DNA of 64,000 nt from Candidatus Omnitrophota bacterium (GTDB lineage Bacteria > Omnitrophota > Gorgyraeia > JAHJTE01), in contig JAHJTE010000001.1 in NCBI GenBank assembly GCA_018830005.1, positions 642,287-706,286 of the forward strand, in the 5' to 3' direction. Below are positions 34,967 through 44,135 of this stretch, piece by piece (the first letter of the stretch is position 1; every line of letters begins with the position of its first letter). The position numbers and the translations under genes are program-made. The notes under the pieces were generated by a model. That model was given only the letters and a program-made list of their open reading frames with translations. It searched no databases and was not told where the DNA came from.

Positions 34967-35437
34967 ATGAATGAAAAATTGATTAAGCTACTTGCAACTT
35001 TTTTCGGGGCAGGCCTTCTTCCTCTGATTGAGGGTACCTGGGGTTCATTGGCCGGGATTATAGTTTATTTCTTATTTTTAAAGGGAAATAGCATTATTCA
35101 TTTATGCTTTTTCTTGATAATCACTGTTGTTGGTTTTGCGGTATGTGCTCCGGCTGAAAGGATTTTTAAAAAAAAGGATGCCGGAGCTATTGTTATTGAT
35201 GAAGTAGCAGGTATTTCACTTTCACTTCTTTTTATCCCTCCTAAACCATTATATATATTAATAGGTTTTTTTCTCTTTCGCTTATATGATACGATTAAGC
35301 CTCCTCCCACGCATTCTATTGAAAAACTTTCCGGCTCATACGGGATAATGGGTGATGATTTAATTGCAGGCGTTTATACCAACATCTCTCTGCATATAAT
35401 AATCTTTGTTTTGAGTTTTTCAGGAGTGTTATCCTAG
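34967..35437 (+). CDS. pgpA: Phosphatidylglycerophosphatase A
   Basis: FGAGLLP...GTWGSLAG...IDEVAG pattern of PgpA; 156 aa. Confidence 0.8.
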   Translation: MNEKLIKLLATFFGAGLLPLIEGTWGSLAGIIVYFLFLKGNSIIHLCFFLIITVVGFAVCAPAERIFKKKDAGAIVIDEVAGISLSLLFIPPKPLYILIGFFLFRLYDTIKPPPTHSIEKLSGSYGIMGDDLIAGVYTNISLHIIIFVLSFSGVLS

Positions 35438-35992
35438 TTTGATAGTGGAGAGGACTTCATAATGCGGGCCAGCTGATGAAAGCGCACTTTTAAAAAGGCT
35501 CACCGCCTCAGTCATCATTTCTTTCTGGCAAATATCGGTTTTCTCAAACACACCAGATAATTTTTCCCGGTTGCGATTACTCCTTACCCTTCCTAATGTA
35601 ATGTGAGATTTAAACGTTCGTTTCTCTTTGGGAAATTTTAAACTCACCAAGGCTGCCTCAGTTGAGGCGGCTAGTTTTTCTAGGGCGTTATCGGCTGATA
35701 CTGCATTAATCCAGATTACTCGAGGATTAGCAATCTTAGGAAATATCCCTAGGCTATTGAGCTTAAGAGAAAATGGCTTAAAGTAAGACAGACAGCCGAT
35801 GAGTGCATCTTTAATTTTCTCTATTTTTTCCTGCTGGACGTTCCCTAGGAATTTTAAGGTTATATGCAGATTTTCAGGTTTCACCCATTTTACATCAGCC
35901 TCACTTGTCTTTAAAATATCCTGAATGCGCAAGATCTCATCCTTGATCTCCGCCTCTAATTCTACTGCAATAAAAGCCCTTATCGTATGCAT
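35429..35992 (-). CDS. thpR: RNA 2',3'-cyclic phosphodiesterase (2H family, ThpR/LigT)
   Basis: Two HxT/S motifs (HITLKFLG and HITLGRV); 187 aa. Confidence 0.85.
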   Translation of the reverse strand: MHTIRAFIAVELEAEIKDEILRIQDILKTSEADVKWVKPENLHITLKFLGNVQQEKIEKIKDALIGCLSYFKPFSLKLNSLGIFPKIANPRVIWINAVSADNALEKLAASTEAALVSLKFPKEKRTFKSHITLGRVRSNRNREKLSGVFEKTDICQKEMMTEAVSLFKSALSSAGPHYEVLSTIKLG

Positions 35993-36483
35993 TCTTTTAT
36001 CAGATTTAATGCGGCAGTCTTTGCCTCCCGTCGTATCTTTTGACGATTACCCTTGAAATTAAACTTACGACAAATTATTCCTTTCGGGGATGAAACCGCA
36101 ATATAAACCAAGCCTACAGGCTTATGGGTCTTTGCGCCTGTAGGGCCGGCAACACCGGTAATGCCTACGCCTAAGTTAGTTTTTGCCAGATTTCTGATGT
36201 TTTCAGCCATTGCCATAGCAACGTCTTTGCTTACTGCACCTTTAGAATTTATGAGAGAGCGTTTGATTTTCAATATCTCTATTTTGGCCTTATTGCTGTA
36301 GGCAACAATTCCCATTACAAAAAATTTAGAACTTCCTGAGATATCGGTTAGAAGGCTAGCGAGTAGCCCTCCCGTGCATGATTCGCAAGTTGCGATAGTG
36401 AGTTTTTTCTTGATAAGCAGATTATATAGCTGTAGCTGGGCTTTCATACAATCCATTATAGAGACTTTTAATACTATTGACAA
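35980..36483 (-). CDS. pncC: CinA C-terminal domain protein (nicotinamide-nucleotide amidohydrolase PncC-like)
   Basis: TIATCESCTGGLLA...GVGITGVAGP signature of the CinA C-terminal domain; 167 aa. Confidence 0.8.
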   Translation of the reverse strand: MSIVLKVSIMDCMKAQLQLYNLLIKKKLTIATCESCTGGLLASLLTDISGSSKFFVMGIVAYSNKAKIEILKIKRSLINSKGAVSKDVAMAMAENIRNLAKTNLGVGITGVAGPTGAKTHKPVGLVYIAVSSPKGIICRKFNFKGNRQKIRREAKTAALNLIKECIR

Positions 36484-36504
36484 TAGGATAAAATTTGCTA
36501 TAAT
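36477..36504 (+). promoter_or_regulatory. Consensus sigma70-type promoter of the rib leader (TTGACA-N16-TATAAT)
   Basis: Perfect hexamers counted from sequence; -35 overlaps the pncC start codon on the opposite strand. Confidence 0.55.
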
Positions 36505-36511
36505 AAGTTTC

Positions 36512-36655
36512 TAATCTTCGGGGAGAGGTGTGATTCCTTACCGGCGGTTAAGCCCGCGAATCTCCACCGTTTTGTTTCGATAAAACGAAACAGTGGGGAT
36601 GGATCTGGTAAGATTCCAGAGCCGATGGTAAAAGTCCAGATGAGAGAAGATTAAG
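36512..36655 (+). promoter_or_regulatory. FMN riboswitch (RFN element)
   Basis: CTTCGGGGAGAGGTG.GATTCC..ACCGGCGGT.AAGCCCGCGA ... GATTCCAGAGCCGATGGTAAAAGTCCAGATGAGAGAAGAT matches the conserved RFN cores; lies in the ribBA leader. Confidence 0.85.
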
Positions 36656-36661
36656 TGTATA

Positions 36662-36690
36662 CCCGAAGATTCCTCTTCGGGTTTTTTTAT
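36662..36690 (+). terminator. Intrinsic terminator / riboswitch expression platform (CCCGAAGA-TTCC-TCTTCGGG followed by a T-run)
   Basis: 8-bp GC-rich stem, 4-nt loop, 7 T's, immediately before the ribBA start. Confidence 0.75.
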
Positions 36691-36692
36691 TT

Positions 36693-37907
36693 ATGTTTAA
36701 TTCCATATCAGAGATAATCAGAGACCTTAAGGCCGGCAAGATGGCCATAGTAGTTGATGATGAAGGCCGCGAAAACGAAGGCGATCTGCTTATAGCTGCA
36801 CAGAAGGTTAAGTCAGCAGATATCAATTTTATGGCTAGATTTGGACGAGGTCTAATTTGTGTTCCAATGTCTAAGGAAAGATCGGATTATTTAGGTCTTC
36901 ATCCTATGCTGGATAAGGCATACGCTAGGCCTTTGTTCAGAGATAGATTTAATACGGCCTGGATGATCTCTGTGGATGCGCGCAGCGGTATTACTACAGG
37001 CATCTCTGCTTATGATCGTGCAAAGACAATCAAGATTTTGGCTGATAAGCAAACAGGACTTCAGGATTTAGTGCGGCCTGGTCATATCTTTCCCTTGGTA
37101 GCTCAGGAGGGAGGGGTATTAGTCAGGGCAGGTCATACTGAGGCCTGTATTGATTTATTGAAACTTGCTAAGATGCGGCCGACGGGAGTAATCTGTGAGA
37201 TAATGAATGCAGACGGTTCCATGGCCAGGACCAAAGATTTAATTAAATTTTCCAAGAAATTTAAATTAAAAATCTGTACGATCGCAAGTCTAATAGAATA
37301 CAGAAGAAAAAAAGAGTCGTTGATTAAGAGAATAACCAAGGTCAAGCTACCAACAGAATTCGGTAGATTTAAATTATGGATATACGAATCCAGTATTGAT
37401 AAATCGCATCATCTTGCTTTGATCAAAGGGCGTATTGATAGCAAAAAGACTATCCTAGTAAGAGTGCATTCTCAGTGTTTGACGGGAGATGTCTTTTCAT
37501 CTTTACGTTGCGATTGCGGGGCGCAACTTAGAAAGGCATTAGAAATGATTTCGCGCCATCGGGAAGGCATACTTTTATATATGCATCAGGAGGGTCGTGG
37601 TATAGGCCTGCTTAACAAATTGCACGCCTATGCACTTCAGGATAAGGGCATGGATACCGTAGAGGCTAATAAGGCCTTAGGATTCGCGCCTGACCTGCGT
37701 GATTACGGTATTGGTGCACAGATCCTTTTTGATTTGGGTGTAAGAAAAATAAGACTGCTTACTAATAATCCCAAAAAGATTATAGGCCTTGAGGGTTACG
37801 GGCTAGAAGTGAAAGAGAGAGTGTCAATTGAGATTCCAGCCTCAAAGCTAAATCTAGGATACCTGCGTACGAAGAAAAAGAAATTAGGTCATATGTTGAA
37901 CGTTTAA
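36693..37907 (+). CDS. ribBA: Bifunctional 3,4-dihydroxy-2-butanone-4-phosphate synthase / GTP cyclohydrolase II
   Basis: RibB N-terminal half ([11 protein letters not shown]) and RibA C-terminal half with zinc cysteines (SQCLTGD...CDCG). Confidence 0.95.
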
Positions 37908-37925: not shown

Positions 37926-38390
37926 ATGGTAAAAGTAATATCAGGATCATTGTTGGCAAAGGGTAAGAAGTTTGCTATTGTAGCTTCGCGCTTTAATGAG
38001 TTTATAACTGCAAAGTTAATAGAGGGAGCAATTGACACATTAACTCGTCATGAAGTCCTAGATAATGACATCTCTTTAGTTTGGGTACCGGGTTCGTTTG
38101 AGATACCTACTGTAGTTAGCAAGTTACTAAAGTCAAAAAAGTTTGATGCGGTTATCTGCTTAGGGACTTTAATACGCGGCTCAACTAGTCATTTTGAGTA
38201 TATTGCGAGTCAGCTTTCCCGCGGCATATCCCAGCTTTCAGTTGACTCTGGAATTCCAGTAATCTTTGGAGTTATTACTGCTGATACAATTGAGCAGTCG
38301 ATAGAGCGAGCTGGTACTAAAGAAGGCAACAGGGGCCGTGATGCTGCAGTTAGTGCAATAGAGATGGTAAACGTAACAGAGAAGATATAA
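37926..38390 (+). CDS. ribH: 6,7-dimethyl-8-ribityllumazine synthase
   Basis: 154 aa; [14 protein letters not shown] lumazine synthase signature. Confidence 0.93.
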
Positions 38391-38461: not shown

Positions 38462-38896
38462 ATGCGTAAACGTACAAAGGCAAGGGAATTAGCCCTGCAG
38501 GTTCTTTTCCAGATTGATATAACTGGTGAGGATCCTGATAGCGCCCTTAAGGTTTTCCTGCAAAATCAGATACGGCCTATAGAGGCAAGTGTAAGCGAAT
38601 TCTGCCAGTGTCTAATTCAAGGTACAACTTCTAATATGAAGAAAATTGATGAGGTTGTAAGTCGTTATGCAATGAATTGGCTCATCAAACGCATGGCTGT
38701 TATCGATCGCAATATCTTGCGAATGGCAACATACGAGATTATTTATTTATCTGATATACCGGTGAATGTGTCAATAAATGAGGCCGTTGATTTAGCTAAA
38801 AAATTCGGTGATATTGATTCAGGAAAATTTGTCAACGGCATATTAGATAAGATCTCTAAATCAGAAAAGGTTAATAAAAACTCCGCTAAAGATTAA
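38462..38896 (+). CDS. nusB: Transcription antitermination factor NusB
   Basis: RTKARELALQVLFQ N-terminus typical of NusB; 144 aa. Confidence 0.9.
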   Translation: MRKRTKARELALQVLFQIDITGEDPDSALKVFLQNQIRPIEASVSEFCQCLIQGTTSNMKKIDEVVSRYAMNWLIKRMAVIDRNILRMATYEIIYLSDIPVNVSINEAVDLAKKFGDIDSGKFVNGILDKISKSEKVNKNSAKD

Positions 38897-39007
38897 ATAG
38901 CAGGGCTTGTATTTTATTCTAAGAGTTTGAACACTGGATTCTGTTTATGTCCGTTAAGGAGTCAAGGAGCCAAAGATATGTGGCGGACTATTTCTAATGA
39001 GGTAATA

Positions 39008-39835
39008 ATGCCCGAAGCTAAGTTTGCAGATTTACACCTACATACCTATTATTCAGATGGCACATTCTCTCCCCAAGAGTTAATGCATAGAGCCTTAGAA
39101 TCCGGCATCAGCTGCATTTCAATTAATGATCATGATACAGTCAGTGCCTTAGTACCTGCCTTTTCCCAGAGGCCTGAGGATTTAGAATTAATACCAGGGA
39201 TTGAAGTATCCTGTGATTGGCAGGATAAAGAAGTCCACCTCTTGGGATATTACATTGATTATGAAAATAAAGAATTATTGTCTAAGCTAGAGGAAATTGG
39301 CAAACAACGCATTGAGAGGATTCGTATTATGGTAGATAGATTGAAGCAGATGAAGGTTGATATACCTGTCGAGGAAGTATTCGGCCTAGCTAAATATGGC
39401 ACAGTCGGAAGGCTGCATTTAGCCAGAGTCCTTTTAAAAAGAAATATAGTCTCAAACATCCGCGAGGCCTTTATAAGATTTATAGGCGAAGGTTGCCCTG
39501 CATATGTTTCAAGATTCAGGATGAGCGTGAAAGAAGCGATAGAGATGATTGCTAACTACGGTGGCATTCCAGTTCTGGCCCATCCTTTCACTGTTGGCGG
39601 CGATGATTTTATTGAAGGATTAGTACCCTTTGGCCTTAAAGGTATAGAGGTTTATTATCCTGAGCATTCTCGAGGCCAGGTTGAGCATTATAAGGCTCTT
39701 AGCGAACATCTTGGTCTTGTGACAACGGGTGGTTCTGACTGTCATGGTGAGGTTAAAAAGAATATTAAGGTAGGCTTAGTTCGCATTCCCTACGAGATAG
39801 TAAATAGACTAAAAAAAATAAAAGAAGCCCTCTAA
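39008..39835 (+). CDS. PHP-domain phosphoesterase (TrpH/YciV-like)
   Basis: DLHLHTYYSDG, INDHDT, VLAHP and GGSDCHG metal-binding motifs of the PHP family; start moved to ATG 39008 (GAGGT RBS). Confidence 0.8.
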   Translation: MPEAKFADLHLHTYYSDGTFSPQELMHRALESGISCISINDHDTVSALVPAFSQRPEDLELIPGIEVSCDWQDKEVHLLGYYIDYENKELLSKLEEIGKQRIERIRIMVDRLKQMKVDIPVEEVFGLAKYGTVGRLHLARVLLKRNIVSNIREAFIRFIGEGCPAYVSRFRMSVKEAIEMIANYGGIPVLAHPFTVGGDDFIEGLVPFGLKGIEVYYPEHSRGQVEHYKALSEHLGLVTTGGSDCHGEVKKNIKVGLVRIPYEIVNRLKKIKEAL

Positions 39836-39839
39836 AAGA

Positions 39840-40937
39840 ATGAGAAAATCGCAGCATGAATATTTTACGAGAAAGGCATTAGAGCTTGCCATAAAGGCCA
39901 AAGGCAAGACTTCCCCAAACCCTCTTGTGGGTGCTGTGGTAGTAAAAAATAATCGTATAATAGGTAGCGGATATCATAAAAAGGCTGGCTTGGTTCATGC
40001 TGAAGTTGAGGCGCTTAGACAAGCTGGCAGGAGAGCTCAAGGAAGCACCCTCTATGTTAGCCTAGAGCCTTGCTGTTTTTTTGGAAGAACTCCACCTTGT
40101 ACAGATGCAATTATAAATTCCGGAATAAAAAAGGTTATTATTGGAATGTGTGATCCGAATCCAAAGAACAATGGAAGAGGGATTAAGATTCTGCGCCATG
40201 AAGGAATATCAGTTAAGGAAGGTTATTTGCAAAATGAGTTAAAAAAGATAAACGAGCATTTTATAAAATATATTTCTAAAAAAATTCCCTTTGTTACGAT
40301 AAAGGTTGGTCAGAGTCTTGATGGTAAGATTGCGACTAAGACAGGTGATTCTGAGTGGATAACCTCTTATTCAGCCAGAAGTTATGCTAAGAGTCTGCGT
40401 GCTGACTACGACGCAATAATGCTAGGAATAAATACTGTAATTAATGATGATCCAGAATTGGCAGCGCCAGAGAAGAAGCGATTTTTTAAAATTGTTGTTG
40501 ATCCGCATTTAAGGATACCTTTAAAATCACAAATCATACGCAAAAATAGCAAATCTGTTATTATTGCCACAGGACTAAATAGTTCTACCTATAAAAAAAA
40601 GGCATTGGAAAAATTGGGCGTTAAGATTATAAAGGTACCAAGCAGGCTTAAGAATTTAAATCTAAGATATCTATTGAGCAAGTTAGCCAGCTTAGAGATA
40701 ACCAGTGTTTTAGTTGAAGGCGGCGGCAGAATGATTGGTTCGCTCCTGGAACAGCATCTTGTAGATAAGGTTCTTTTTTTTATCGCACCAAAGATTATTG
40801 GCGGTGAATCTGCAATAAGTTCAGTGATGGGTAAAGGGATTAGGAAGATAAAGAATGCTATTAAGCTCGATAATATTAAACTGAAACAGATTGGCAGTGA
40901 TTATTTGTTTGAGGCCTATATTAAGTCCATAGCATAA
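39840..40937 (+). CDS. ribD: Bifunctional riboflavin biosynthesis deaminase/reductase RibD
   Basis: CMP/dCMP-type deaminase zinc motifs (HAEVEAL, PCxxC as LEPCCFFGRTPPC) plus C-terminal reductase domain. Confidence 0.93.
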   Translation: MRKSQHEYFTRKALELAIKAKGKTSPNPLVGAVVVKNNRIIGSGYHKKAGLVHAEVEALRQAGRRAQGSTLYVSLEPCCFFGRTPPCTDAIINSGIKKVIIGMCDPNPKNNGRGIKILRHEGISVKEGYLQNELKKINEHFIKYISKKIPFVTIKVGQSLDGKIATKTGDSEWITSYSARSYAKSLRADYDAIMLGINTVINDDPELAAPEKKRFFKIVVDPHLRIPLKSQIIRKNSKSVIIATGLNSSTYKKKALEKLGVKIIKVPSRLKNLNLRYLLSKLASLEITSVLVEGGGRMIGSLLEQHLVDKVLFFIAPKIIGGESAISSVMGKGIRKIKNAIKLDNIKLKQIGSDYLFEAYIKSIA

Positions 40938-40953: not shown

Positions 40954-41523
40954 ATGTTCACAGGTATTATAGAAGAATTAGGAAAGGTTAAGGCACTAGA
41001 AAGAAGAGGCAGACTTTTTCGTCTTGGAATCGAAGCAGAAAAGATCACCCAAGATATTAAAATCGGTGATAGCATCTCTGTAAATGGCGTATGCCTGACC
41101 TTGGTTGCTGTAGAGAATAATTTAATTAGCTTTGATGTTCTCAATGAAACTGTACAGAGGAGCAATATTGGAGGTTTAAGAACGCTTGAGAATGTTAATC
41201 TAGAGCGCGCCTTAAAAGTCGGCGACAGACTCAGCGGTCATTTTGTGAATGGTCACATTGATTGTATGGGTATTATCCGTAAAAAGACCTATAAAGACAA
41301 CAACCTCTGTTATGAGATTAGTTTTCCTAGCGAGTTTTCAAGTTACGCGGTAGAGAAAGGCTCAATTGCTGTTGATGGTATAAGCCTAACAATTTCACAG
41401 ATACGCGGTGGTTCTTTTAGTGTAAATGTCATACCTCACACCCTCGTGAATACCACTCTTAAATTCAAAGGCCCTTCCAGCAAAGTCAATCTCGAATTTG
41501 ATATCCTTCTGAAACGCAAATAA
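40954..41523 (+). CDS. ribE: Riboflavin synthase alpha subunit
   Basis: MFTGIIEELGKV N-terminus and internal repeat (GDSISVNGVCLT / GSIAVDGISLT). Confidence 0.93.
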   Translation: MFTGIIEELGKVKALERRGRLFRLGIEAEKITQDIKIGDSISVNGVCLTLVAVENNLISFDVLNETVQRSNIGGLRTLENVNLERALKVGDRLSGHFVNGHIDCMGIIRKKTYKDNNLCYEISFPSEFSSYAVEKGSIAVDGISLTISQIRGGSFSVNVIPHTLVNTTLKFKGPSSKVNLEFDILLKRK

Positions 41524-41557: not shown

Positions 41558-41586
41558 TTGCCTTTAGCTTTATTTTCTGCTATACT
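41558..41586 (+). promoter_or_regulatory. Putative sigma70-type promoter of tRNA-Pro (TTGCCT-N17-TATACT)
   Basis: Hexamers and spacer counted from sequence; -10 ends about 22 nt before the mature tRNA 5' end. Confidence 0.45.
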
Positions 41587-41608: not shown

Positions 41609-41683
41609 CGGGGAGTAGCGCAGTTTGGCTAGCGCGCTTGCTTCGGGAGCAAGAGGTCGACGGTTCAAGTCCGTCCTCCCCGA
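41609..41683 (+). tRNA. tRNA-Pro (anticodon CGG), 3' CCA not encoded
   Basis: Cloverleaf folded by hand: acceptor CGGGGAG/CTCCCCG, D-stem GCGC, anticodon stem CTTGC/GCAAG with loop TTCGGGA, T-arm GACGG-TTCAAGT-CCGTC, discriminator A. Confidence 0.85.
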
Positions 41684-41702
41684 TTTCTCAAAGCACGTTA
41701 TT

Positions 41703-41978
41703 ATGGCTAAAAGGAGAATTCATATATATTTTTCAGGAAGGGTGCAGGGGGTAGGTTTTCGCTTCACTGCTGAACGCCTAGCTCGTAATTTAAAGATAGC
41801 TGGCTGGGCAAAGAATCTCTTTGATGGCCAGGTAGAGGTGGTGGCTGAGGCCGAGGAAAACACCTTAAATGATTTCTTGCAGCAGATGAAGGATAATTTC
41901 CATAATTATATTGAAGATATTGAGATTGATTGGAAAGATAATTGTGAAGGCCTAGTTGATTTTCAAATAAGGTTTTAA
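41703..41978 (+). CDS. acyP: Acylphosphatase
   Basis: 91 aa; ...[13 protein letters not shown]...[14 protein letters not shown]... matches acylphosphatase motifs; start placed at the ATG after the tRNA, not the ORF-track start that overlaps it. Confidence 0.8.
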
Positions 41979-43406: not shown

Positions 43407-44135
43407 ATGCGCTACGGGATTTTTGCAGATATACATTCTAATATAGAGGCCCTAGAGGCAGTATTGACTGCCCTTGAATCTGAAAATATTGATAAGTATC
43501 TGTGTGTAGGTGATGTTATTGGCTATGCTGCAAATCCTTGTGAGTGTATAAAAAGGGTTAAGGAGATAGCGTCGGTTTGTGTTGCCGGGAATCACGATTG
43601 GGCAGCAATAGGAAAATTTAATCTAGATTTTTTTAATCCCCTTGCGAAGACAGCTATTGTCAAGAATAGCCTAAAACTATCTGAAGAAGATAAAAAGTTT
43701 CTGGATAGCTTAAAACTAACTTATGAGAATGAAGATTTGACGTTGGTACACGGCACCTTGCAGGATGCGGCAAGCTTTCATTATCTTAGGGGAGAATTTG
43801 AGGCAGTGTGGACATGCAGGTTGATGGAGACGCCTGTTTGTTTTGTCGGTCACACCCATATCCCGCAAATTTTCGAGTTTAGAAATTACTCATCAATCTC
43901 TGAATTGTTTACCTCAGAGCTAAGAATAGAGGCCAATAATAAATATATAGTTAATGTAGGTAGCGTTGGTCAGCCTCGCGATAATGATTCAAGGGCCTGT
44001 TATTGCGTTTTTGATGCAGAAAAAGGTGAGATTTCATTAAAACGCAGCGGTTATGATATAAAAGGAGCGCAAGGTGAGATGCTCAAAGCAGGTATGCCTG
44101 AATTTTTGGCTAGACGACTTACCTTTGGACAATAA
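43407..44135 (+). CDS. Calcineurin-like metallophosphoesterase
   Basis: DIHSN, GDVIGY, GNHD, GHTH motifs. Confidence 0.75.
   Translation: MRYGIFADIHSNIEALEAVLTALESENIDKYLCVGDVIGYAANPCECIKRVKEIASVCVAGNHDWAAIGKFNLDFFNPLAKTAIVKNSLKLSEEDKKFLDSLKLTYENEDLTLVHGTLQDAASFHYLRGEFEAVWTCRLMETPVCFVGHTHIPQIFEFRNYSSISELFTSELRIEANNKYIVNVGSVGQPRDNDSRACYCVFDAEKGEISLKRSGYDIKGAQGEMLKAGMPEFLARRLTFGQ

Follow-up and report, generated by a model that had tools for sequence, protein, structure and literature searches.

The gene at positions 39008-39835 of the window studied here (a stretch of 64,000 nucleotides from a Candidatus Omnitrophota bacterium, contig JAHJTE010000001.1) lies within a riboflavin (rib) operon behind a flavin mononucleotide (FMN) riboswitch, and its predicted product is a phosphoesterase of the PHP family. 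With a probability of roughly 55 %, this product is a housekeeping phosphoesterase of nucleotides or RNA ends, a 3'-phosphoadenosine 5'-phosphate (pAp) phosphatase and/or an RNase AM-like enzyme, whose gene was fixed alongside nusB in the rib operon of Omnitrophota. We infer the substrate from conserved residues; the status of the gene as a passenger in the operon is an inference too. A preliminary description of this DNA had proposed the gene, by association, as a candidate for the phosphatase of 5-amino-6-ribitylamino-uracil 5'-phosphate (ARPP, also ARAPDP), and had given as alternative an RNase AM / pAp-phosphatase homologue co-located by chance. An ARPP-phosphatase function is possible but disfavoured, and it was weakened by the present analysis; on this evidence a passenger role is more likely.

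Fold and active site of the PHP protein

The protein matched the PHP domain of Pfam (PF02811, 33.2 bits, cutoff 26.4). Its top NCBIfam model was that of 3',5'-nucleoside bisphosphate phosphatase (NF041577, 168.2 bits), followed by RNase Rnm (NF047791, 158.6 bits), and the model of the histidinol-phosphate phosphatase type (NF004981) gave 28.6 bits at a cutoff of 117. Sequence matches in the PDB were E. coli RNase AM (7UG9, E 2.6e-32), V. cholerae RNase AM (9ETK), BAD_1165 of B. adolescentis and Cv1693. The AlphaFold2 (AF2) model, with a predicted local distance difference test score (pLDDT) of 94.8, superimposed on 9ETK, 3E0F and 2YB1 with template modelling (TM) scores of 0.84-0.87 over 264-278 columns, which span the whole protein with its insertion domain, and on the histidinol-phosphate phosphatase 2YXO, a PHP monoesterase, with a TM score of 0.29. 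The PF02811 match and the AF2 superpositions both point to a PHP-domain distorted (beta/alpha)7 barrel carrying a helical insertion domain. As judged from sequence and predicted structure, the product of 39008-39835 is a PHP phosphoesterase of the TrpH/YciV (COG0613) branch, in the group of RNase AM and Cv1693.

Active-site residues were compared in alignments of 36 rib-linked and 45 unlinked sequences, and then of 66 rib-linked and 65 unlinked sequences (131 homologues). The metal ligands of E. coli RNase AM are H13, D20, H45, E72, H83, H198, D255 and H257 (PMC9410882), to which we added H15, the second histidine of the HxH motif. The nine corresponding residues (H10, H12, D17, H42, E66, H77, H192, D244 and H246) were found to be invariant in all 131 homologues, linked and unlinked. 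In the E. coli enzyme R107, R110 and R141 make a buried pocket for the 5'-phosphate, while F161 stacks on the base, and AMP is bound by Cv1693 in the same manner (PMC9410882). The equivalents of these residues, R101, R104 and R135 of the pocket and the stacking F155, were likewise invariant in the 66 rib-linked and the 65 unlinked homologues. A strict search for group-specific residues yielded one I/L column only. A relaxed search over the 131 sequences yielded eight mild clade-specific positions (A7, S35, L67, E75, I159, L172, Y194 and D199); the one nearest to the active site is Y194, where the window protein has F. Neither search signals an altered substrate pocket.

The activities known in this family are those of a pAp phosphatase, 5'-to-3' hydrolysis of short 5'-monophosphorylated RNA and of diribonucleotides, rRNA 5' maturation and removal of flavin adenine dinucleotide (FAD) caps (PMC9410882, PMC11528712, PMC8268124). 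With nucleotide and RNA substrates the 5'-phosphorylated nucleoside occupies the arginine pocket and the second phospho(di)ester lies at the metals. FAD caps are unable to bind in that pocket mode and require a different one (PMC9410882). By analogy, the trinuclear metal centre of the window protein would hydrolyse the phosphoester, with the buried three-arginine pocket holding a 5'-phosphate one nucleoside away and the phenylalanine stacking on the base. The likeliest activity would be hydrolysis of a 3'-phospho(di)ester beside a 5'-phosphorylated nucleoside, concretely conversion of pAp to AMP and inorganic phosphate and/or RNase AM-like removal of nucleotides in the 5'-to-3' direction from short 5'-monophosphorylated RNA.

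The predicted architecture fits pAp or short 5'-phosphorylated RNA, and not singly phosphorylated ARPP. Were the PHP enzyme the ARPP phosphatase of Omnitrophota, dedicated or moonlighting beside its ancestral activity, it would remove the 5'-phosphate from the RibD product to supply lumazine synthase, and would be the fourth structural family found for this step. ARPP has one phosphate, however, and if this lies at the metals the conserved arginine pocket has no evident ligand. The main argument against an ARPP phosphatase is that R101, R104, R135 and F155, without an obvious ligand in that case, are nevertheless invariant over deep divergence and the same in unlinked homologues. As an inference this pocket argument may be compatible with a moonlighting ARPP activity. 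COG0613 enzymes, moreover, act as genuine phosphomonoesterases on pAp, a ribose phosphate, and a few of the clade-specific residues, Y194 and E75, are found by the metal site, both of which speak for ARPP. Weighed together, these considerations leave the ARPP function unlikely.

The riboflavin operon in the window and in other Omnitrophota

The gene order in the window is ribBA-ribH-nusB-PHP-ribD-ribE, all on the plus strand, behind an FMN riboswitch with terminator. The elements of this block are the following.

36477..36504, plus strand: sigma-70-like promoter of the rib operon, TTGACA-16-TATAAT with TG extension (12/12 consensus matches; a consensus match only)
36510..36655, plus strand: FMN riboswitch aptamer, or RFN element (RF00050, 107.6 bits, E 4.7e-24, gathering score 66.2, full model 1-138)
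36661..36692, plus strand: terminator-like hairpin and T-run, the expression platform (9-bp stem with 5 GC pairs, then TTTTTTTATTT)
36693..37907, plus strand: ribBA, DHBP synthase / GTP cyclohydrolase II (PF00926 8.4e-78, PF00925 2.6e-73)
37926..38390, plus strand: ribH, lumazine synthase (PF00885 5.8e-57)
38462..38896, plus strand: nusB, transcription antitermination factor, a non-riboflavin gene within the operon (PF01029 1.1e-39; TIGR01951 142 bits, cutoff 88)
38897..39007, plus strand: nusB-PHP spacer of 111 nt, containing an alternative in-frame ATG at 38978
39008..39835, plus strand: predicted TrpH/YciV-type PHP phosphoesterase, 275 aa, ATG start (PF02811, NCBIfam, PDB and AF2 matches)
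39840..40937, plus strand: ribD, deaminase/reductase (TIGR00326 362 bits, cutoff 156)
40954..41523, plus strand: ribE, riboflavin synthase, final gene of the block (PF00677 x2, 7.6e-46)
41609..41683, plus strand: tRNA-Pro(CGG), downstream boundary of the operon

The promoter lies directly 5' of the riboswitch, and the terminator-like hairpin ends 1 nt before the ATG of ribBA. With an RF00050 aptamer and an expression platform 5' of co-directional rib genes, the block is an FMN-riboswitch-regulated rib operon, as had been described before on the basis of the letters and open reading frames. In the window no terminator-like site was predicted between ribH and ribE; a promoter-like site was found at 41558-41586, near tRNA-Pro(CGG). 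The start codon of ribBA stands 10 nt past the terminator stem, right behind the T-run, and a Shine-Dalgarno sequence is not recognisable there (36683-36695).

Both distances given in the preliminary description, 111 nt from nusB to the PHP gene and 4 nt from the PHP stop codon to ribD, are exact. Alternative starts exist for the PHP gene: a longer in-frame open reading frame begins at TTG 38927, and ATG 38978 stands behind tandem AAGGAG motifs (38957-38980). Starting at ATG 38978 would add 10 residues to the protein and cut the nusB-PHP gap to 81 nt. The start at 39008 matches the position where homologues begin, and the 10-residue extension is not common to them. GC content and third-position GC content (GC3) of the gene equal those of its neighbours, and no PHP paralogue was found in the 64-kb window. 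Its product shows 100 % identity to a PHP domain-containing protein of a Candidatus Omnitrophota metagenome-assembled genome (MAG). The gene is native to Omnitrophota, and its spacing suggests co-transcription with the rib genes.

Relatives were collected in two scans. The species scan covered one genome per GTDB species, with PHP-centred sampling, and the best 80 loci were taken; a metagenome scan was seeded with a boundary sequence (top 80 matches), and the window's own contig recurs in it as L129 (JGI metagenome). Among the best 80 loci, the order ribBA-ribH-nusB-PHP-ribD(-ribE) was present on the same strand in 35/35 loci of the Omnitrophota type, whose PHP proteins are 42-67 % identical to that of the window. 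The metagenome scan added ~33 further loci with identical order, for a total of about 70 loci. Lack of conservation in relatives had been named beforehand as a ground for dropping the ARPP proposal; the linkage was instead kept in every Omnitrophota locus recovered.

The genes in these loci are tightly packed. The median gap is -4 nt between nusB and the PHP gene (overlap in 23/38 loci), -4 nt between the PHP gene and ribD (overlap in 31/37 loci) and 0 nt between ribD and ribE. The nusB-PHP overlap in most relatives is 1-20 nt, so that the 111-nt spacer is usually absent there; in the closest relative, L001, the spacer measures 99 nt. An FMN riboswitch was recognised by Rfam in 9/13 sampled loci. 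A nhmmer profile made from the Rfam-confirmed elements located it 5' of ribBA in 34 of the 36 loci having upstream sequence, with no match in L022 and L033 and only a partial match in L034. Linkage in every recovered Omnitrophota locus, translational coupling and the FMN riboswitch together indicate that the PHP gene is a genuine operon member and no chance neighbour. Of the earlier alternative, an RNase AM / pAp-phosphatase homologue co-located by chance, the first part fits the sequence better than an ARPP phosphatase does, while "chance" understates the fixation of the gene in the operon.

The same data bear on the explanation that the PHP gene is merely adjacent, its transcription starting at a separate promoter within the nusB-PHP spacer and being independent of the riboswitch and the rib genes. 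The spacers of 111 nt in the window and 99 nt in L001 would give room for a promoter, but the spacer at 38897-39007 contains no predicted promoter- or terminator-like site, the nusB-PHP and PHP-ribD overlaps of most relatives leave no intergenic space, and order and strand are invariant. Such an independent unit is very improbable.

Four of the loci (L016, L017, L030 and L031) are titled "uncultured Planctomycetia/Planctomycetales" while having full Omnitrophota-type synteny and belonging to the same PHP clade; these labels are probably wrong. The aptamers of L009:2624-2896, L012:6377-6644, L028:7434-7708 and L031:7467-7730 span 265-275 nt, compared to 146 nt in the window, implying large insertions in a variable stem. 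Two PHP genes of the Omnitrophica WOR_2 SM23_72 MAG, P0045 and P0119, were considered as paralogues and rejected, since both lie in identical rib operons, which indicates a mixed-strain bin and not paralogy.

The position of the gene speaks for an ARPP phosphatase. The PHP gene stands between rib genes, overlapping or abutting ribD in 31/37 loci and with an FMN riboswitch in 34/36, and is conserved in all ~70 Omnitrophota-type loci. None of the rib genes of the block encodes a phosphatase, in agreement with the earlier remark that dephosphorylation of ARPP is assigned to no rib gene here, and the operon holds no other phosphatase. When the open reading frames of the 64-kb window were scanned with crude regular expressions, neither HAD motif I nor the RHG motif of histidine phosphatases turned up, which is weak evidence. 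The phosphatase of this step varies by organism and belongs to the unrelated HAD, histidine phosphatase and IMPase folds (PMC12051542, PMC13151069). The earlier statement that the known ARPP phosphatases are HAD enzymes is slightly outdated, both a histidine-family phosphatase and an IMPase of Aquifex having been added in 2025 (PMC12051542, PMC13151069). Dephosphorylation of ARPP is the sole step of riboflavin synthesis without a universally assigned enzyme; it is known to be carried out by HAD enzymes of promiscuous activity or, in the case of Aquifex, by a histidine-family phosphatase. If a candidate phylum keeps a phosphatase in its riboswitch-controlled rib operon, that phosphatase would be a clean candidate for a dedicated enzyme of new fold.

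Single origin of the linkage and passengers of the operon

Conservation of the linkage carries less weight when its distribution is considered. Of the homologues outside the Omnitrophota-type clade, the 45 nearest ones (39-45 % identity, 45 genomes) had neither rib genes nor nusB within 10 kb, and rib linkage was zero in these 45 and about 40 further outside homologues. Judged by recurrence in independent lineages, our own supporting sign, the association is found at 100 % within one clade (~70 loci) and at zero outside. In neighbour-joining (NJ) trees with 60 bootstraps, the rib-linked PHP proteins and one exception (L035) were monophyletic in 59/60 replicates, with unlinked Thermodesulfobacteriota sequences as sister of the rib-linked clade. 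The Thermodesulfobacteriota homologues adjoin a divergent sigma-70 gene and EamA, radical-SAM and AzlC/D genes, and those of Clostridia sit in a YmdB-SpoVS-M19 dipeptidase cluster. Since only a single clade shows the linkage, the ~70 loci represent one evolutionary event. The same genomes also keep a wider synteny, rimO-pgsA-pgpA, the rib block and acyP-(metallophosphoesterase)-ligA, and the single clade origin together with this larger conserved block makes conservation of the linkage weak evidence for function. The single origin within the larger syntenic block and the absence of rib linkage in the outside homologues both speak against an ARPP phosphatase.

The exception, L035:4680-5531 (the same as L086), belongs to a Desantisbacteria MAG. 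Its PHP protein is ~50 % identical to those of Omnitrophota and is nested in their clade (59/60), while its gene overlaps the end of dnaB, behind rpsF and rplI, with no rib coupling. A nested orthologue in a dnaB/ribosomal-protein context is a further point against a role in riboflavin synthesis. A ribE gene lies 3.3 kb downstream in L035, but this was rejected as a rib linkage, a tRNA, Thi4 and a TIM-barrel protein standing in between and the PHP gene being coupled to dnaB. The metagenome scan for relatives of this dnaB-coupled orthologue gave the same contig only, and the other near relatives are all rib-embedded; L035 could be a case of horizontal transfer or a mis-binned contig. A riboswitch-PHP link was also rejected for a Limnochordia locus (L077:2640-3445). 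Its FMN riboswitch (75.9 bits), 7 kb upstream of the PHP homologue, controls an ECF-type RibU riboflavin transporter, and the opposite-strand genes in between, together with the control of RibU, make its proximity to the PHP gene coincidental.

The operon itself carries genes without a role in riboflavin synthesis. One of them is nusB, which is coupled in the same way as the PHP gene and often abuts ribH. In L001 a gene for a 761-aa BNR/sortilin-repeat protein is inserted between ribBA and ribH (L001:5606-7891), and in L005 a gene for a GGDEF-domain protein between ribD and ribE (L005:11976-12791). It has been documented that nusB, nrdR, thiL and pgpA are non-riboflavin members of rib operons (PMC5312566). 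The presence of nusB and of these sporadic unrelated inserts shows that the Omnitrophota rib operon carries passengers, which is again a point against an ARPP role. The PHP gene and nusB would travel as passengers in the riboflavin operon. Their arrangement would have arisen once, in an Omnitrophota ancestor, with tight operon structure, and not a role in riboflavin synthesis, keeping the PHP gene there. A plausible history would start from the common order ribD-ribE-ribBA-ribH-nusB-X, followed by a rearrangement that would have placed ribD-ribE behind X.

In 34/36 Omnitrophota loci nusB, a global antitermination factor, lies within the FMN-riboswitch operon. Elsewhere nusB was found in only 5/651 FMN-riboswitch transcription units, and it has been argued that nusB and the riboswitch are negatively correlated (PMC5312566). 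It would be unusual for nusB to be controlled by flavin. The rarity of the pairing suggests that regulation may be meaningful here. As a rival explanation, the substrate of the enzyme could be a nucleotide or RNA end that contains flavin; FAD caps might be removed, for example, or another flavin nucleotide hydrolysed. Through the FMN riboswitch a shortage of flavin would in that case be tied to its recovery or, jointly with NusB, to RNA 5'-end metabolism. Consistent with this, RNase AM of E. coli takes FAD caps off RNA at rates like those of 5'-monophosphorylated RNA decay, releasing intact FAD, and its knockout alters cellular FAD-cap levels (PMC9410882); the PHP gene and nusB, moreover, are jointly under the riboswitch. 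The argument is purely analogical, however, as the sequence gives no pointer to flavin binding. Attempts to separate the removal of FAD caps by RNase AM from its activity on 5'-phosphorylated RNA failed, and such removal is apparently general for 5'-3' exonucleases (PMC9410882); the same active site is found in unlinked homologues, and FAD-capped RNA is not known from such organisms. A flavin-directed activity is therefore quite unlikely.

Several observations also weigh against a housekeeping enzyme that travels as a passenger. The linkage is universal and very tight within the clade, across PHP identities down to about 40 %, and sporadic passengers are not so conserved. The PHP gene directly precedes ribD, whose product is the substrate of the orphan phosphatase. 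A housekeeping enzyme with nusB under an FMN riboswitch is in itself unusual, given the 5/651 units mentioned (PMC5312566). With regard to the proposed activity, both NCBIfam scores fall far short of the equivalog cutoffs of their models (400 bits for NF041577 and 375 bits for NF047791, RNase AM/Rnm). The arginine with which RNase AM and Cv1693 touch the scissile phosphate (R201 in E. coli; PMC9410882) is not kept and aligns to T195; this position is variable, with M/I/T in rib-linked and T/L in unlinked homologues. A subfamily-specific motif, E214-VYYPE-H220 (EVYYPEH), is in addition invariant in the 131 linked and unlinked sequences. The EVYYPEH-bearing homologues without R201 make up an uncharacterised COG0613 subfamily in Omnitrophota, Thermodesulfobacteriota and Clostridia.

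Taken together, the ARPP proposal stood as far as a conserved and coupled linkage is concerned, and lost ground through the invariant arginine triad and F155, the near lack of divergence from unlinked homologues, the single origin and the passengers. That Omnitrophota recruited a PHP enzyme of the TrpH/YciV subfamily as ARPP phosphatase or, as a variant, placed an RNase AM-like enzyme under control of flavin status together with NusB, is considered doubtful. If true, such recruitment would give the first PHP-fold enzyme for this step, encoded in the rib operon and controlled by an FMN riboswitch. If the passenger explanation is true, the operon is a cautionary case for guilt-by-association, one ancient rearrangement kept by operon inertia mimicking functional linkage.

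Other phosphoesterase-type genes are present in the conserved synteny around the operon, none of them within the riboswitch-controlled block. The neighbours outside the block are listed here.

34967-35437: PgpA, phosphoesterase-type neighbour
35429-35992, minus strand: LigT 2',5'-RNA-ligase-like phosphoesterase
35980-36483, minus strand: CinA
41700-41978: acylphosphatase
43407-44135: YfcE-like metallophosphoesterase

Comparison with known systems

The closest described enzymes are the RNases AM of E. coli (YciV/TrpH/Rnm; 7UG9) and of V. cholerae and P. aeruginosa (9ETK), which have the same PHP (beta/alpha)7 barrel and insertion domain (TM 0.87 to 9ETK) and whose nine metal ligands, R107/R110/R141 pocket and F161 are all conserved in the PHP protein. 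The PHP protein is ~31 % identical to RNase AM and differs in the replacement of E. coli R201 by T/M/I and in its own EVYYPEH motif. While E. coli rnm adjoins trpL and yciO, the PHP gene is found inside the rib operon. Cv1693, the 3',5'-nucleotide bisphosphate (pAp) phosphatase of Chromobacterium violaceum (2YB1), also shares the fold (TM 0.84), and its R99, R102 and R134 align with R101, R104 and R135. The PHP protein is ~28 % identical to Cv1693 and, at 168 bits against the cutoff of 400 on the family model NF041577, is no equivalog of it. The protein itself thus belongs to a known family, while the rib-PHP gene context is apparently unreported. The searchable literature holds no report of a COG0613 subfamily with the EVYYPEH motif and without an R201 equivalent, nor of an FMN riboswitch that, across a whole phylum, has both nusB and an RNase AM-like gene under it.

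Phosphatases of the HisK/HisJ type, which are phosphomonoesterases of the singly phosphorylated histidinol phosphate, share the PHP superfamily and the trinuclear metal site with the window protein, while their fold is remote. We take this family to be without the insertion domain that carries the arginine pocket.

The known ARPP/ARAPDP phosphatases have no sequence or fold kinship to PHP. They comprise the HAD enzymes YigB/YbjI of E. coli, YcsE/YwtE/YitU of B. subtilis, an Arabidopsis enzyme and a HAD enzyme of B. thetaiotaomicron, and, outside HAD, the histidine-family phosphatase and the IMPase of Aquifex (PMC12051542, PMC13151069). In a 2026 review of the pathway only the HAD, histidine-phosphatase and IMPase folds are named for the ARPP step (PMC13151069). 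No link of PHP/COG0613 to riboflavin operons or FMN riboswitches was found in the searchable literature, which also counts against an ARPP role. The B. subtilis rib operon encodes every required enzyme except the ARAPDP phosphatase (PMC13151069).

Known rib operons with passengers include the V. cholerae cluster proBA-nrdR-ribD-ribE-ribA-ribH-nusB-thiL-pgpA, in which nusB likewise stands behind ribH and the rib genes share a transcript with unrelated housekeeping genes (PMC5312566); near the operon of the window, too, pgpA is found. Operons of the V. cholerae type are generally without an FMN riboswitch, whereas here the riboswitch, nusB and the PHP gene coexist, with nusB and the PHP gene in the midst of the rib genes.

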